A stretch of 38,701 nt of DNA from Shigella phage ESh8. The stretch lies in sequence record ON528721. One strand, written 5' to 3'. Both the position numbers and the translations under genes were made by a program. Numbering within the stretch: position 1 is the stretch's first letter; every line of letters begins with the position of its first letter. Below, one piece after another: positions 1-38,701 of the stretch. Below the pieces are notes generated by a model that saw only the letters and a program-made list of their open reading frames with translations, made no database searches and was not told the DNA's origin.

Positions 1-1182
1 AACTCTGCTGCTGCCGCTAAGGTCTCAGAGACCAACGCTAAGGCCTCCGAGGAGAGAGCAATCACTGAGGCGAGCAAGCTGGGAAACATGAATGACTTTG
101 CTGGTACAATCGACAAGGTTGAAGGTGTAAACGTGTGGTTCAAAGGGACACTCGTTACTACCCAGAACATCACCGGAGGTGGGCTTATTTCCACAGGCCA
201 CGCTAATATTGGTAAAGGTCTTGCGGTTCAGGAGAATGGTACTTTCGGTATCGACTTAACAGTCCAGCGCGACATTTATGGAAATCGTAACATGACAGTC
301 GCTGGTAACTCTTGGTTGCAGGGAGGTATTAACCAGTCGGCAGCCTCCACCGTGTATAACCAGCTGTATCGCCTTCACCTGAGCAATACGCCAATGCACG
401 TAGGGAACCGTCAAGGTGTCCACATTGGATGGAACGAGTCGAACGCTAGAGGTGAAGCTGTCTTTTTGAATAACCAAGGTGGTGGTGATGGTGGGTTCGT
501 GTTCCGTACAGTTAACGCCGCCAACTCAGTTGAGAAGGGTCGTGTCGATTTTACTCAGGACGGTAACATCTACGCGAATCGCCTACAGGTTCGTTCCGGT
601 GCCAGAATTGAGGGGAACAACAACATCGTAGGTCAGTACCTCTACGCAGGAATGGGCACCGCGACACTAAACCCGGATGGGAACCTTAGCGGCGGTGTGT
701 GGAACAACGTTGGTGGAAACCTTTGGGGAATGCTCCACGACAACTACAGGTTCGCCAAACCTCCTGCTGGTGTCCGGCTGTACACAGGCCGTGGCAGGGA
801 CTACATTGAGGGTAACGTTGATGGTACATCCGTTGGGTTCCGCTGGTTCCAGTCTGACAGAAGGCTTAAAGAGAACCTCAAGGTTGTTCGCTCTGCTGAT
901 GATATGCTCAATATTATCCGCTCGTATATTCCGGTTTCCTATAAATATAAGGACTCTGAGTACGTTGACAACCGTGGGAAGACTGTTACTGTCACCGGTA
1001 AGAACTCTCGTGCTGGTTTCATTACTCAGGACTTGATTCGAATCTGGCCAGAGGCGGTTGATATAATGAGCGACGGTATGCAGTCTCCAGACCCTAACCA
1101 GATTATTGGCGGACTGATGCTGCTTGTTAAGAACCTAGATGAACGTGTTCAGGCGCTTGAATCTAAACTTATGACAGACTAA
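1..1182 (+). CDS. 17: Tail fiber protein gp17, C-terminal portion (5' end cut by window start; open in frame 1 from nt 1). Contains divergent receptor-binding region and a C-terminal intramolecular chaperone-like domain (approx 853..1182)
   Basis: No stop in frame 1 from nt 1 to 1182; preceded logically by T7-like gp17 N-terminus at window end; position immediately upstream of holin 17.5; C-terminal motif WFQSDRRLKENL typical of peptidase S74 / endosialidase-chaperone domains. Confidence 0.85.
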   Translation, partial: NSAAAAKVSETNAKASEERAITEASKLGNMNDFAGTIDKVEGVNVWFKGTLVTTQNITGGGLISTGHANIGKGLAVQENGTFGIDLTVQRDIYGNRNMTVAGNSWLQGGINQSAASTVYNQLYRLHLSNTPMHVGNRQGVHIGWNESNARGEAVFLNNQGGGDGGFVFRTVNAANSVEKGRVDFTQDGNIYANRLQVRSGARIEGNNNIVGQYLYAGMGTATLNPDGNLSGGVWNNVGGNLWGMLHDNYRFAKPPAGVRLYTGRGRDYIEGNVDGTSVGFRWFQSDRRLKENLKVVRSADDMLNIIRSYIPVSYKYKDSEYVDNRGKTVTVTGKNSRAGFITQDLIRIWPEAVDIMSDGMQSPDPNQIIGGLMLLVKNLDERVQALESKLMTD

Positions 1183-1193
1183 GGAGGTGTTAA

Positions 1194-1397
1194 ATGTTAT
1201 CCTTCGACTTCAACAATGAGGTCGTTAAGGCTGCGCCTATTGTTGGCACAGGGGTCGCTGATGGGGCGGCCCGACTCTTTTGGGGACTATCGTTAAACGA
1301 ATGGTTCTACGTTGCAGCTATCGCCTACACAGTGGTTCAGATTGGTGCCAAGGTAGTCGATAAGATGATTGACTGGAAACGTGCAAACAAGGAGTAA
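1194..1397 (+). CDS. 17.5: Class II holin (gp17.5), 67 aa
   Basis: 67 aa, hydrophobic segments, strong RBS TAAGGAGGT, position between tail fiber and gene 18 exactly as in T7. Confidence 0.9.
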   Translation: MLSFDFNNEVVKAAPIVGTGVADGAARLFWGLSLNEWFYVAAIAYTVVQIGAKVVDKMIDWKRANKE

Positions 1398-4026: not shown

Positions 4027-4049
4027 AATTAACCCTCACTAAAGGGAGA
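4027..4049 (+). promoter_or_regulatory. T3-type phage RNAP promoter (phiOR-like), AATTAACCCTCACTAAAGGGAGA
   Basis: Exact match to T3 promoter consensus; located after gene 19 before 19.5 as phiOR in T7. Confidence 0.9.
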
Positions 4050-4190
4050 GAGGGGACTTAAAGCTATTATATAGGTTAGTCATTCAGGTTATGCAATGAC
4101 CCTTTATGCACTTTAAGTCTACCTCTATGATTGGTGATATTATCATTGTATAATCACCCTACCTTAGAGCAACTGAAAGGAGGTGGCTCA

Positions 4191-4340
4191 ATGTTACGCT
4201 TGCTGATTGCCCTGCTGCGTCATAGAGTCACTTGGCGATTTCTTCTGGTACTTACTGCTACCCTTGGGTACGCAGGTCTTACTGACCACCTCGGTCAACT
4301 GGAAGTGGCCTTTTGCTCTATACTCTCTTGTGGGGATTAA
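4191..4340 (+). CDS. 19.5: gp19.5-like small protein, 49 aa (ORF track start 4131 is upstream of RBS; ATG 4191 preferred)
   Basis: MLRLLIALLRHRVTWRFLLVL... closely resembles T7 gp19.5 (49 aa); RBS AAAGGAGG. Confidence 0.8.
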   Translation: MLRLLIALLRHRVTWRFLLVLTATLGYAGLTDHLGQLEVAFCSILSCGD

Positions 4341-4419
4341 ATTATTGTTGATGACCGACAAGCGGCTCTGAGGGATTCGTAGGTATAGTTTCACTACACC
4401 AACTCATCCCTGTAGAGTC

Positions 4420-4910
4420 AACCCTAAAGGTTATACCTAAAGATGCCCTGTAGTTCGTAATGGTCTTACAGGGTCTTCTGGTGTCTCCTAGCTATCCCTT
4501 CGGGATGCACCTATGGTCTCACCTATGGTGTGGCCTTACCTAAAGTGGTTGCCTAAAGAGACCCTTTAAGTATTTACCACAAAAATCTGAATGGGTATCT
4601 CACAGTTCAAGAACCCAAAGTACCCCCATAGCCCTCCTAAAGCCACCTAAAGCCAGCCCTACCCCTAGGGTTTAACCTTCGGTTAACCTTGGGTATCTCC
4701 TCAAGTGGCCTATAGGATAGCCTAAAGTGTTGCCTAAAGTCAATACCTAAAGAGGTGGCTGCCTATTGGAGACTTAAAGAGTGTCCTAGTGTACCAGTTC
4801 GATAGTACATCTCTATGCGTCCCTATCTGTTAGCCTCATAAAGTAAACCCTAAAGCCGCCACCTAAAGACCAGACCTAAAGCCATCACCTAAAGAGTGCC
4901 GCTATCTTAA
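4420..4910 (+). repeat. Array of dispersed CCTAAAG-type heptamer repeats (about 13 copies) spanning the genome-end region
   Basis: CCTAAAG or ACCTAAAG seen at approx 4423, 4437, 4549, 4562, 4648, 4658, 4729, 4743, 4756, 4849, 4865, 4878, 4893; same motif class as T7 end-region short repeats. Confidence 0.8.
4598..4828 (+). repeat. Probable terminal repeat (single collapsed copy; boundaries approximate)
   Basis: Starts with TCTCACAGTTCAAGAACCCAAAGTACCCCCATAG, matching remembered T3/T7 left-end sequence pattern; lies between right-end genes (19.5) and left-end early promoters. Confidence 0.5.
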
Positions 4911-4976
4911 AGACAACCAGACCGATAGACCCATTGTTAACCTGTAGTGATGCCCTGTAGTTATCTGTAGTCAATT

Positions 4977-4999
4977 CAATTACCCTCACTAAAGGGAAT
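4977..4999 (+). promoter_or_regulatory. Variant phage RNAP promoter (phiOL-like), CAATTACCCTCACTAAAGGGAAT
   Basis: Core CCCTCACTAAAGGGA present, one A missing in upstream AATTAA box; position left of host promoters as phiOL in T7. Confidence 0.6.
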
Positions 5000-5052
5000 A
5001 AGGGATACTTAAAGAGGGAATAAGGGATTTAATAAAAGATTTAAATTAATGG

Positions 5053-5082
5053 TTGACTTTAAGTAACCCTTAAGGCTATTAT
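5053..5082 (+). promoter_or_regulatory. Host sigma70-type early promoter (A1-like): TTGACT - 18 nt - TATTAT
   Basis: -35 TTGACT at 5053, -10 TATTAT at 5077. Confidence 0.7.
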
Positions 5083-5181
5083 TCATCACGTCAACGGGAC
5101 AACGGCCTTAAAGCCACTCCCTGAGATACCGGAGTCAACCGGATAAGTAGACAGCCTGATAAGTCATACGAAAAACAGGCA

Positions 5182-5211
5182 TTGACAACATGAAGTAACA
5201 TGCAGTAAGAT
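5182..5211 (+). promoter_or_regulatory. Host sigma70-type early promoter (A2-like): TTGACA - 18 nt - TAAGAT
   Basis: Sequence TTGACAACATGAAGTAACATGCAGTAAGATAC is the remembered T7 A2 promoter. Confidence 0.8.
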
Positions 5212-5286
5212 ACACAGCGTCAACCGGACACAAGGTGTCTTCTAGGTGACTTAAGCGCACCACGGCACATAAAGTGAAACAAACGG

Positions 5287-5315
5287 TTGACAACATGAAG
5301 TAAGCACGGTACGAT
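5287..5315 (+). promoter_or_regulatory. Host sigma70-type early promoter (A3-like): TTGACA - 17 nt - TACGAT
   Basis: TTGACAACATGAAGTAAGCACGGTACGATGTACC matches remembered T7 A3. Confidence 0.8.
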
Positions 5316-5602: not shown

Positions 5603-6061
5603 ATGATTTTCACTAAAGAGCCTGCTAACGTCTTCTATGTACTGGTGTCAGCTTTCCGTTCTAACCTTGATGATGAGGTGAACATGAGCCGCCACCGCCA
5701 CATGGTTAGCACTTTACGTGCCGCACCGGGTCTTTATGGCTCCGTTGAGTCAACCGATTTGACCGGGTGCTATCGTGAGGCAATCGCAAGCGCACCGACT
5801 GAGGAAAAAACGGTTCGTGTACGCTGCAAGGACAAGGCGCAGGCACTCAATGTTGCACGATTAGCTTGCAATGAGTGGGAGCAAGATTGCGTACTGGTAT
5901 ACAAATCACAGACTCACACGGCTGGTCTGGTGTACGCTAAAGGTATCGACGGGTATAAGGCTGAACGCCTGCCGGGTAGCTTCCAAGAGGTTCCTAAAGG
6001 CGCACCACTGCAAGGCTGCTTTACGATTGACGAGTTCTGTCGCCGCTGGCAAGTACAGTAA
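5603..6061 (+). CDS. 0.3: S-adenosylmethionine-degrading enzyme (T3 SAMase, anti-restriction), 152 aa
   Basis: 152 aa; sequence MIFTKEPANVFYVLVSAFRSNL... recognised as T3 gp0.3 SAMase; first early gene after host promoters. Confidence 0.9.
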   Translation: MIFTKEPANVFYVLVSAFRSNLDDEVNMSRHRHMVSTLRAAPGLYGSVESTDLTGCYREAIASAPTEEKTVRVRCKDKAQALNVARLACNEWEQDCVLVYKSQTHTAGLVYAKGIDGYKAERLPGSFQEVPKGAPLQGCFTIDEFCRRWQVQ

Positions 6062-25980: not shown

Positions 25981-26115
25981 GACCATAGATGCCTACAATG
26001 GTTGAATCACCTGAGCACAGAACTTTGTGGTCGCTCCCGTAGGTGAAACATTGAGAACCAACTCGATTCAAGTAGTAACCAAACTTTTCTTTAAATTAAC
26101 ATAAGGAGATTCAAC

Positions 26116-27159
26116 ATGGCTAACATTCAAGGCGGACAGCAAATTGGTACTAATCAGGGTAAGGGTCAGTCCGCAGCGGACAAATTGGCGCTGTTCCTGA
26201 AAGTGTTCGGCGGTGAAGTCCTGACTGCTTTCGCTCGCACCTCCGTGACCATGCCTCGTCACATGCTGCGCTCTATTGCTTCCGGTAAGTCCGCACAGTT
26301 CCCTGTGATTGGTCGCACCAAAGCCGCTTACCTGAAACCGGGTGAGAACCTCGATGACAAACGTAAGGATATCAAACACACCGAGAAGGTAATCCACATT
26401 GATGGCCTGCTGACTGCGGACGTTCTGATTTACGACATTGAGGACGCAATGAACCACTACGACGTTCGCGCTGAGTACACCGCTCAGTTGGGTGAATCTC
26501 TGGCGATGGCGGCTGACGGTGCTGTACTGGCTGAACTGGCTGGTCTGGTTAACCTGCCGGACGCATCCAATGAGAACATCGAGGGTCTCGGTAAGCCTAC
26601 CGTACTGACTCTGGTTAAGCCTACCACTGGCGACCTGACTGACCCGGTTGAGCTGGGTAAATCGATTATCGCTCAGTTGACTATCGCTCGTGCGTCTCTG
26701 ACCAAGAACTACGTTCCGGCTGCTGACCGTACCTTCTACACCACTCCTGATAACTACTCTGCGATTCTGGCCGCTCTGATGCCGAACGCTGCAAACTATC
26801 AGGCACTGATTGACCCTGAGCGTGGTACTATCCGTAACGTGATGGGCTTCGAAGTGGTTGAGGTTCCGCACCTGACCGCTGGTGGCGCTGGTGATACCCG
26901 TGAGGATTCCCCGGCTGACCAGAAGCACGCTTTCCCGGCGACTTCCAGCACTACCGTTAAGGTTGCTCTGGATAACGTTGTGGGCCTGTTCCAGCACCGC
27001 TCTGCGGTTGGTACGGTCAAGCTGAAAGACTTGGCTCTGGAGCGCGCTCGTCGTGCGAACTATCAGGCTGACCAGATTATCGCTAAGTACGCGATGGGCC
27101 ACGGCGGTCTGCGTCCAGAAGCTGCTGGCGCTATCGTGCTCCCAAAGGTGTCGGAGTAA
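26116..27159 (+). CDS. 10A: Major capsid protein 10A, 347 aa
   Basis: MANIQGGQQIGTNQGKG... and ...IAKYAMGHGGLRPEAAGA match T7 10A throughout. Confidence 0.98.
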   Translation: MANIQGGQQIGTNQGKGQSAADKLALFLKVFGGEVLTAFARTSVTMPRHMLRSIASGKSAQFPVIGRTKAAYLKPGENLDDKRKDIKHTEKVIHIDGLLTADVLIYDIEDAMNHYDVRAEYTAQLGESLAMAADGAVLAELAGLVNLPDASNENIEGLGKPTVLTLVKPTTGDLTDPVELGKSIIAQLTIARASLTKNYVPAADRTFYTTPDNYSAILAALMPNAANYQALIDPERGTIRNVMGFEVVEVPHLTAGGAGDTREDSPADQKHAFPATSSTTVKVALDNVVGLFQHRSAVGTVKLKDLALERARRANYQADQIIAKYAMGHGGLRPEAAGAIVLPKVSE

Positions 27160-36800: not shown

Positions 36801-37862
36801 AATGTGGTCGGTACGATTCGTTTCGGTACTCAAGAGTTGGCTGCACGCTCTCCTTGGACAATGCTCCTGAACGGAACATCAAACTACATTCTTGATGCTG
36901 CCCGTCAGGGTGTGCTTGGGGATGTGGCTGGAGCGGCCCTTGCTGGGAAAGCCTCTAAGTTCGGTAAGGCAAACTACCTTAAGTCTGCCTCTATCAGCCC
37001 TGAGCAGTGGAATGGAATCAAGCAGTTGTTCAGAGACCATGCGACTCGTGGAGAAGACGGTAAGTTCACCATTCGTGACAAACAGGCTTTCGCTAACGAC
37101 CCTCGTTCAATGGACTTGTGGCGACTGGCCGACAAGGTGGCGGATGAGACTATACTGCGCCCTCACAAGGTTTCCTCACAGGACTCCAAAGCGTTCGGTG
37201 CAGGGGTGAAGATGGTGATGCAGTTTAAGAACTTCGTCATCAAGTCCCTTAACTCCCGGTTCGTCCGTAGCTTCTACGAGGCAACGAAGAACAACCGTGC
37301 GTTAGACCAAGCGTTGACTCACATCATCTCCTTGGGTCTAGCTGGTGGTTACTACGTTGGGCAGGCGCACCTTAAGGCTGCGAGTCTACAGGAGCACAAA
37401 CGTAAGGAGTACCTTAAGAACGCCCTTGACCCTAAGATGATTGCTCATGCGTCAATCTCTCGTAGTTCACACTTAGGCTCGCCAGTGAGTATCTACGACA
37501 TGTTCGCTGGGATGGTTGGTAGCGATACCTATAAGTACACCCGCTCTACGGTACTCCCTAAAGAGTCCGAGAAGCGTGACCCTACCAAGGCAGTGACAGG
37601 TAGACAGGTGGCTTCAACTATCGCAGGTGCAGTTGGTGAGCAGGTTCCGGGTTTAGGTTTTGTTGGCTCTGTGGGTGCAACAGCTATTAACGCCGCTTCC
37701 CTGCTGTCTTCTCCAAACAAGGCTACCGCTCTGGAGTTCCGTACAGGACTCTTCAACACCTCTCGTGAGTTGATTCCTAATGACCCGCTATCGCAGCAAC
37801 TCATTATGAAAATCTACGAGGCCAACGGTATCCGCGTAAAGGAGACGCCGAAGAAACAATAA
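33900..37862 (+). CDS. 16: Internal virion (core) protein D gp16 with N-terminal lytic transglycosylase domain, 1320 aa
   Basis: 1320 aa (T7 gp16 1318 aa); N-terminal SLT-like motifs LAFNESSFNP...GLMQF. Confidence 0.95.
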   Translation: MSYDKNKPSEFDGLFQKAADKHGVSYDLLRKLAFNESSFNPKAKSPTGPKGLMQFTKGTATALGLKVTDDDDDDRYNPELAVDAAARHLSDLIRKYDGDELKAALAYNQGEGRNGAPQIQAYDKGDWASISEEGRNYMRNLMDVANSPRKGDLEAFGGITPKAKGIPSGDAFAGIGKKQTVGTDLPESTGFKVEGKEQKAPNVPYAKDFWEKTGTTLDEFNSRSTFFGIGDATSAELHNSVLGVAFRAARSDDGFDLFKDTITPTRWNSHTWTPEELERIRKEVKNPAYINVVTGGSPENLDALIKMANDNYEMDARSADAGVGAKLTAGIVGAGVDPLSYVPLVGVAGKGLKVVNKAFIVGTQSAGLAVASEGLRTSIAGGEAHYADAALGGLMFGAGMSAISDAIAAGIRRSRGTEVVNDFAPMAHRLEARETALNSGGEDLTRMPSENRVFDREHAGVEYSPLETEPGAVVLPQGQILSDTNPLNPQTLSEFEAVNPERAARGISLGGFTEIGLKTLRSENQTVRSIASDLVRSPTGMESGSNGKFGATASDIKERLHANNQRTYNQLYDAVRTAMKDPEFSTGGATMSRKEIRQEIYKRAALAIERPELQANLTKGERNVMKILKQHFDLKREIMENPSIFGNTKAVSIFPGSRHKGTYVPNVYDRAIKIEMVKRYGNDGLQRAIAESWLTSYRARPEVKARVDEYLMELNGLKSVQEVTPEMVQKHAMDKAYGISHTDQFSASSVIEDNIEGLVGIENNNFLEARNMFDSDMAVTLPDGNTFSVNDLRTYDMAEILPAYDRRVDGDVAIMGGSGKTTKDLKDEIMALDKQSEGNGTLKGEVEALKDTVKILTGRARRNPEGAWGTALRSVNDLTFFAKNAYMGAQNVTEIAGMLAKGNVSAITHGIPMINDWVNRGKPLRASEIKELHGMVFGKELDQLIRPGREDHVRRLRESTDTSAAVANVVGTIRFGTQELAARSPWTMLLNGTSNYILDAARQGVLGDVAGAALAGKASKFGKANYLKSASISPEQWNGIKQLFRDHATRGEDGKFTIRDKQAFANDPRSMDLWRLADKVADETILRPHKVSSQDSKAFGAGVKMVMQFKNFVIKSLNSRFVRSFYEATKNNRALDQALTHIISLGLAGGYYVGQAHLKAASLQEHKRKEYLKNALDPKMIAHASISRSSHLGSPVSIYDMFAGMVGSDTYKYTRSTVLPKESEKRDPTKAVTGRQVASTIAGAVGEQVPGLGFVGSVGATAINAASLLSSPNKATALEFRTGLFNTSRELIPNDPLSQQLIMKIYEANGIRVKETPKKQ

Positions 37863-37880
37863 ACCCTCACTAAAGGGAGA
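37858..37880 (+). promoter_or_regulatory. T3-type phage RNAP promoter (phi17), AATAAACCCTCACTAAAGGGAGA
   Basis: Consensus core; overlaps gene 16 stop; followed by GAGAGAGG...CCTCTTCTCTC inverted repeat. Confidence 0.9.
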
Positions 37881-37933: not shown

Positions 37934-38701
37934 ATGGCTACAACTATTAAGACCGTGATGACTTACCCGCTGGATGGCTCCACTACGGACTTCAATATTC
38001 CGTTTGAGTATCTGGCTCGTAAGTTCGTCCGAGTGACACTTATCGGCGTTGACCGAAAGGAACTCATCTTGAATCAAGACTATCGTTTTGCGACTAAGAC
38101 CACAATCTCCACAACGAGAGCATTGGGGCCAGCGGACGGTTATACTTTGATTGAAATCCGTCGATTCACCTCCGCTACAGACCGTCTGGTTGACTTTACC
38201 GACGGCTCTATCCTGCGGGCATATGATTTGAACATCTCGCAGGTTCAGACACTCCACGTTGCTGAGGAAGCCCGTGACCTTACCACTGATACAATTGGCG
38301 TTAACAATGATGGGAACTTGGATGCTCGTGGTCGTCGTATCGTTAACGTTGCGGATGCGCAAGATGTAGGTGATGCAGTCAACTTAGGCCAAATCCAACG
38401 GTGGAACGACTCTGCGTTGAACTCTGCGAATCGAGCGAAACAGGAAGCTGACCGTGCTACCGCTCGTGCAAACGATGCGAACAACTCTGCGAACGCATCT
38501 GCAAGCTCTGCAAGCTCTTCTGCTGGGTCTGCTGAGTTATCAAAACAGTGGGCCGTTAAGGAAACCGCTGTGGAGCCAAATCTAGAATCATCACGAACCT
38601 ACGCGCTTCACTCCATGTCATACCGGAATGAGGCTAAAGGCTCTGCCGACCGTGCCGCTGTTTCCGAGACCAACGCTAAGGACTCCGAAGTTTCCGCTGC
38701 T
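37934..38701 (+). CDS. 17: Tail fiber protein gp17, N-terminal portion (3' end cut by window end; 256 codons, no stop)
   Basis: MATTIKTVMTYPLDGSTTDFNIPFEYLARKFVRVTLIGVDRKEL... matches T7 gp17 N-terminal tail-attachment domain; RBS AAAGGAGGT. Confidence 0.95.
   Translation, partial: MATTIKTVMTYPLDGSTTDFNIPFEYLARKFVRVTLIGVDRKELILNQDYRFATKTTISTTRALGPADGYTLIEIRRFTSATDRLVDFTDGSILRAYDLNISQVQTLHVAEEARDLTTDTIGVNNDGNLDARGRRIVNVADAQDVGDAVNLGQIQRWNDSALNSANRAKQEADRATARANDANNSANASASSASSSAGSAELSKQWAVKETAVEPNLESSRTYALHSMSYRNEAKGSADRAAVSETNAKDSEVSAA

Follow-up and report, generated by a model that had tools for sequence, protein, structure and literature searches.

In endoNF and T5 pb1, three C-terminal domains assemble and template the folding of the distal trimer; a Lys-activated Ser cuts the bond directly before itself, and the chaperone domain then departs. 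A 2019 review listed a self-excising domain in the Yersinia phages vB_YenP_AP5, phiYeO3-12, AP10, and phiYe-F10 (PMC6950378). For phiYeO3-12 gp17, a 2020 study reported a UniProt S74 annotation at aa 539–645, homology models based on 3gud and 4uw8, and an SDS-PAGE mass of ~58 kDa against a theoretical 69.4 kDa, together with an ~11-kDa fragment (PMC7582827). The BASEL paper of 2025 noted a C-terminal intramolecular chaperone in the Teseptimavirus fiber of Escherichia phage MeretOppenheim (Bas102) (PMC11990801).

Here, we analyzed a 38,701-nucleotide stretch of DNA from Shigella phage ESh8 (ON528721), referred to as the window. Its two ends each carry part of a tail fiber gene; joined as 37934..38701 plus 1..1182, they form a single gene 17 encoding 649 aa (Table 1). 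The product is collinear with phiYeO3-12 gp17 (CAB63638, 645 aa), aa 1–643 aligning with aa 1–641 at 79.6% identity, and with the fiber of Yersinia phage vB_Yep_15 over its full length at 93.5% identity. Judged by sequence, gp17 is thus a tail fiber of the phiYeO3-12 type and a full-length orthologue. We assign a probability of about 0.9 to the reading that this locus, as gene 17 of a T3-type podophage, specifies a fiber of the phiYeO3-12 type consisting of an attachment domain, a shaft, a distal receptor binder, and a self-cleaving S74 chaperone. The original prediction, made from the letters of the window and its open reading frames, had described these features where we found them, and its reading is supported; it missed the orthology to phiYeO3-12 gp17. 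The phiYeO3-12 group, to which vB_YenP_AP5, AP10, phiYe-F10, vB_Yep_15, Enterobacter phage E-3, and Klebsiella phage IME305 belong, has the three-part design, the SDRRLK site, the placement of the gene after gene 16 and before the holin gene, and the phi17 promoter in common with gp17 of ESh8. In contrast, allelic differences from this group are concentrated in aa 324–373, 404–413, and 474–503, which are also the most variable parts of the family, and the receptor may differ. The combination of PF03906 and PF13884 occurs in at least 90 clusters (90% identity) of a large protein collection, many of them on ~39-kb contigs. The architecture, the S74 domain, and the processing have already been published for close orthologues; this is therefore a common, described fiber type, and it opens no new question.

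Table 1 Features of gene 17 and its surroundings in the ESh8 window.
Feature	Position (nt)	Strand	Remarks
phi17, T3-type phage RNA polymerase promoter	37858..37880	+	upstream of gene 17; 1 mismatch to T3 consensus
gp17 aa 1–155, T7-type tail-attachment domain	37934..38398	+	PF03906, E = 3.7 × 10−59
gp17 aa 156–256, first part of Ala/Ser-rich coiled-coil shaft	38399..38701	+	collinear with T7 gp17 shaft
gp17 aa 257–307, shaft end, last T7/T3-similar stretch	1..153	+	alignments stop at aa 307–309
gp17 aa 308–540, Gly/Asn-rich distal receptor-binding region	154..852	+	C-terminus of predicted mature fiber
Motif DGNLSGGVW..GGNLW, aa 475–527	655..813	+	also in T7/T3 gp17 (T7 aa 435–484)
gp17 aa 541–649 and stop codon, Peptidase_S74 intramolecular chaperone, 109 aa, 12.4 kDa	853..1182	+	
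SDRRLK, predicted nucleophile Ser541 (853–855) and general base Lys546 (868–870)	853..870	+	
Gene 17.5, holin	1194..1397	+	phrog_920 holin, E = 2.7 × 10−31

The Peptidase_S74 domain occupies the extreme C-terminus of a protein that begins with the N-terminus of a T7-type trimeric fiber. Pfam placed PF13884 on aa 541–609 with 43.3 bits (E = 4.4 × 10−11), above the curated cut-off of 22 bits, and thereby bore out the proposal that an S74 domain is present. The WFQ-SDRRLKENL segment starts at position 844, with the Ser codon at 853–855. A Ser-x4-Lys dyad had been proposed as S256 and K261; the dyad is there, but its residues are Ser541 and Lys546, since the earlier numbers had been counted on an internal ATG ORF (88..1182). 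Likewise, the stretch from Ser541 to the end has exactly the anticipated length of ~109 aa. Among aligned family sequences covering the site, Ser and Asp are invariant in 58 of 58 and Lys in 51 of 51, and S541, D542, and K546 are also invariant in 30 diverse S74 proteins and in an alignment with 20 distant ones at 22–33% identity. No other part of the family is as conserved as the chaperone domain. Outside the phiYeO3-12 group, the DNA of MeretOppenheim (Bas102) is 84.5% identical across window positions 799–1153, whereas the receptor-binding part that precedes its chaperone is divergent, without a megablast match before nt 799.

Structural comparisons pointed to the same domain. A single-sequence PDB search with the C-terminal 346 aa returned one weak match, 8jov (E = 0.022), and alignment profiles were needed for significant PDB matches. 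With the family profile, SDRRLK was aligned to SDERLK of 8jov, a phage tail fiber (E = 8 × 10−9), to ADLRAK of 7dc3, the MyRF ICA domain carrying a Ser-to-Ala mutation (E = 3 × 10−8), and to SDRRIK of 6f45, Salmonella phage S16 gp37 (E = 3 × 10−7). An AlphaFold model of aa 519–649, built on a diverse S74 alignment, reached a pLDDT of 81.7; Foldseek retrieved MyRF ICA first (E = 4.6 × 10−4, TM 0.59) and the endoNF chaperone next. As modeled, the domain has the fold of the solved chaperone domains, with a long C-terminal helix at its end. Sequence identity to the solved homologues, namely endoNF K1F endosialidase (3gw6), T5 pb1 (4uw8), the GA-1 neck appendage (3gud), S16 gp37 (6f45), and MyRF ICA (7dc3), is 15–24%, and their upstream passengers are unrelated (a sialidase beta-propeller with stalk, the T5 tip, and a transcription factor).

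On this basis, the predicted scissile bond is Gln540|Ser541, and a working mechanism can be outlined by analogy with the orthologues and the solved homologues. The fiber would be a trimer docking onto the tail through aa 1–155 and continuing as a coiled-coil shaft over aa 156–307, both parts being common to T7 and T3. A beta-structured distal region, aa 308–540, would stand in place of the pyramid and tip domains of T7/T3, and its most likely role is host receptor binding; the receptor class suggested by the orthologues is the LPS O-antigen, which the phiYeO3-12 group uses. Three copies of aa 541–649 would assemble and nucleate trimerization and folding of the distal fiber. Ser541, activated by Lys546, would then cut Gln540–Ser541, freeing the 12.4-kDa fragment and leaving a mature fiber of 58.1 kDa with its tip exposed. 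The calculated masses (70.4 kDa for the whole protein, yielding 58.1 kDa for aa 1–540 and 12.4 kDa for the remainder) agree with the published processing of phiYeO3-12 gp17.

Alternatively, the S74-like domain might be a relic that remains on the fiber, capping it structurally or contributing to the binding tip, without self-cleavage. Cleavage of this exact protein is predicted from an orthologue, and some proteins with such domains have been described as truncated or variable (PMC11990801), both of which would leave room for a relic. Nonetheless, we regard it as very improbable: the family shows no variation at the motif Ser, Asp, and Lys, which lie in its best-conserved domain, and the 80%-identical orthologue yields products of ~58 and ~11 kDa (PMC7582827). 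The predicted self-cleavage would place the end of the mature virion fiber at Gln540. A further implication is that any construct expressing the receptor-binding protein must include the C-terminal 109 aa, whether the aim is host-range engineering or diagnostics, as with phiYeO3-12 gp17.

Upstream of the chaperone, gp17 divides into a part shared with T7 and T3 and a part that is not. The T7 gp17 structures 7boz and 8e4g matched the N-terminal part (E = 1 × 10−89 and 5 × 10−75, respectively), and T7 gp17 aa 1–292 aligned with aa 1–309 here. Attachment domain and shaft, that is aa 1–307, are common to T7 and T3 gp17 at 53–55% identity (BLASTP), PF03906, which likewise scores higher than its curated cut-off, being followed by a collinear coiled-coil shaft in which Ala makes up 21.7% and Ser 15.1%. 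A T7-like N-terminus had been recognized earlier, albeit over ~150 aa; the similarity is real but reaches aa ~307, about double that extent, which places the break near window nt 153.

Past aa 307, BLASTP against T3 and T7 gp17 gave no significant match. T7 and T3 gp17 have pyramid and tip domains and lack S74, whereas the distal 340 aa of the ESh8 fiber are unrelated to these domains and include an S74-type chaperone; neither BLASTP nor hhalign detected pyramid and tip domains here. Comparison by hhalign with the T7/T3 distal halves aligned just a 50-column motif (probability 56%, E = 1.2 × 10−4), and in the profile search DGNLSGGVW..GGNLW came up again, weakly, as the second match. The short DGN-x-G-x-x-W motif is thus common to both fibers. 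We had considered that collinearity with the distal domains of T7/T3 might be hidden and rejected this, as profile–profile comparison gave the short motif alone. These results are in line with the original prediction that the C-terminal half does not resemble the T7 distal domain and that a Gly/Asn-rich stretch precedes the S74 domain (Gly 17.2% and Asn 12.0% in aa 308–540).

Could the C-terminal half instead be an enzymatic tailspike, a depolymerase similar to the K1F endosialidase? S74 domains often come after depolymerases, and K1F gp17 itself combines a T7-type N-terminus with a sialidase and an S74 C-terminus (PMC7582827). However, the shaft and the predicted cleavage site are just 233 aa apart, and the distal core is common to ordinary myovirus tail fibers. 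Pfam searches of aa 304–540 at E values up to 1 recovered no meaningful family, catalytic and beta-helix families included, and PDB sequence searches with aa 308–540 gave no match. With no catalytic domain found, and hence no glycosidase or lyase of the K1F gp17 type, we discarded the depolymerase, which we consider highly improbable. A receptor-binding tail fiber with a C-terminal chaperone remains the preferred reading.

The distal core, aa ~383–493, was found in 87 representative clusters. Separately, we observed this core (aa ~383–500; GLHIGWNE..GGFVFRTVN..DGNxxGxxW; window 532–900) in fibers of ~400 aa within a myovirus-type baseplate cluster, at locus L009 5001–6814 (a Logan SRR10605995 contig). 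These fibers are without S74 and have a separate Caudo_TAP assembly protein next to them (PF02413, 26.4 bits). The core thus occurs with a chaperone in cis in some fibers and in trans in others.

An AF2 monomer model of aa 304–649 was poor (pLDDT 66.5, pTM 0.37), and Foldseek searches of the PDB with this low-confidence model returned nothing significant (best E = 0.13). A more specific proposal is that the distal region represents a structurally uncharacterized receptor-binding fold, which a chaperone acting either in cis or in trans can mature, and that the receptor of this allele is not the Y. enterocolitica O:3 O-antigen; taken as a whole, we hold this proposal to be possible but doubtful.

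We then compared the two sides of the fiber with those of related phages. Residues 1–180 are 97–100% identical to phiYeO3-12 and IME305, the Teetrevirus type, and 73–97% identical to vB_Yep_15. Residues 181–649, by contrast, are ~100% identical to the Teseptimavirus vB_Yep_15 and divergent from phiYeO3-12, most strongly in aa 301–420 and 481–510. Relative to vB_Yep_15, the module breakpoint therefore falls at ~aa 180 (nt ~38471), a recombination breakpoint inside the fiber, and the two patterns indicate that a module was swapped between the genera. Such mosaicism amounts to an ordinary exchange of receptor-binding modules between T3-like and T7-like phages, of which this fiber provides another example. 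Regarding the receptor, AP5 depends on the O:3 O-antigen of Y. enterocolitica (PMC4283147), which makes the originally predicted difference from the receptor of T3 and T7 a reasonable supposition. The phages with the closest fibers were isolated on Yersinia, Shigella, Klebsiella, and Enterobacter; binding of the O:3 O-antigen by the ESh8 fiber is therefore not to be assumed.

The residue numbering used here depends on joining the window ends. At the start of the window, frame 1 reads through 393 aa to a stop codon (1..1182, +); at its end, an ATG opens a frame that continues to the last nucleotide (37934..38701, +) and encodes 256 aa beginning with MATTIKTV. When the last 300 and first 300 nt of the window were joined, this 600-nt junction aligned to contiguous vB_Yep_15 DNA over 600 of 600 columns, without gaps and at 98.8% identity, and it was also gapless against Shigella phage ESh7. 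Because of this gapless junction, and because the annotated vB_Yep_15 fiber has the same length of 649 aa, we infer that the window is a circularly permuted, complete genome of a T3-type phage. The original prediction had made a protein of ~649 aa conditional on circularity, and the joined frame has precisely this length, compared with 553 aa for T7 gp17 and 558 aa for T3 gp17. That the two halves are separate genes, in a non-circular window or a chimeric assembly, has a negligible probability: no terminal redundancy was found in the window and its circularity was deduced rather than directly seen, but the frame is continuous, its length matches the vB_Yep_15 fiber, and the gapless junction alignments to vB_Yep_15 and ESh7 led us to reject a chimera.

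Several public records that match window 1–1182 have an incomplete fiber annotation. In Klebsiella phage KP13MC5-2, the matching fiber is a ‘hypothetical protein’ of 262 aa, truncated where the record ends; in Escherichia phage 64795_ec1, it is annotated as a 341-aa fragment; and in Shigella phage ESh7, the C-terminal part of the fiber is without annotation.

The genomic context is that of T7 and T3. In the ORF map, gene 17 is flanked by gene 16 and the gene 17.5 holin and preceded by a phage promoter, and the order of gene 17 and holin is that of phiYeO3-12, T3, and T7. An annotated phi17 promoter occupies the equivalent position before gene 17 of phiYeO3-12. The window contains 10 matches to T3-type promoters, phi17 among them, compared with 0 expected by chance, and an AAGGAGG sequence is located 4 nt upstream of the gene 17 ATG. 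Downstream of gene 17 follows the usual set of genes for holin, small terminase, spanin, and large terminase. With Teetrevirus phages such as Serratia phage 2050H2 and Citrobacter phage SH1, the genome backbone shares ~96% identity. Across the full window, scans for Rfam families and tRNAs found nothing.

Elsewhere in the window, the terminase gene is followed at 4027–4049 by a perfect promoter of the T3 type, the position of phiOR in phiYeO3-12, and three consecutive strong sigma-70-type promoters at 5053–5315 resemble the A1–A3 early promoters. Together, these phiOR-like and A1–A3-like promoters suggest that the physical genome ends lie at ~4100–5000 and that the terminal repeat has been collapsed. 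A 152-aa early gene at 5603–6061 has the position and size of T3 gene 0.3, and its product matches a PHROG labelled ‘SAM-dependent methyltransferase’. Since the product of T3 gene 0.3 is an anti-restriction enzyme that degrades SAM, this methyltransferase label is probably misleading. Finally, a 344-aa antisense ORF at 26068–27102 (−) lies almost exactly over the major capsid gene (26116–27159, +) and is probably a by-product of codon composition.
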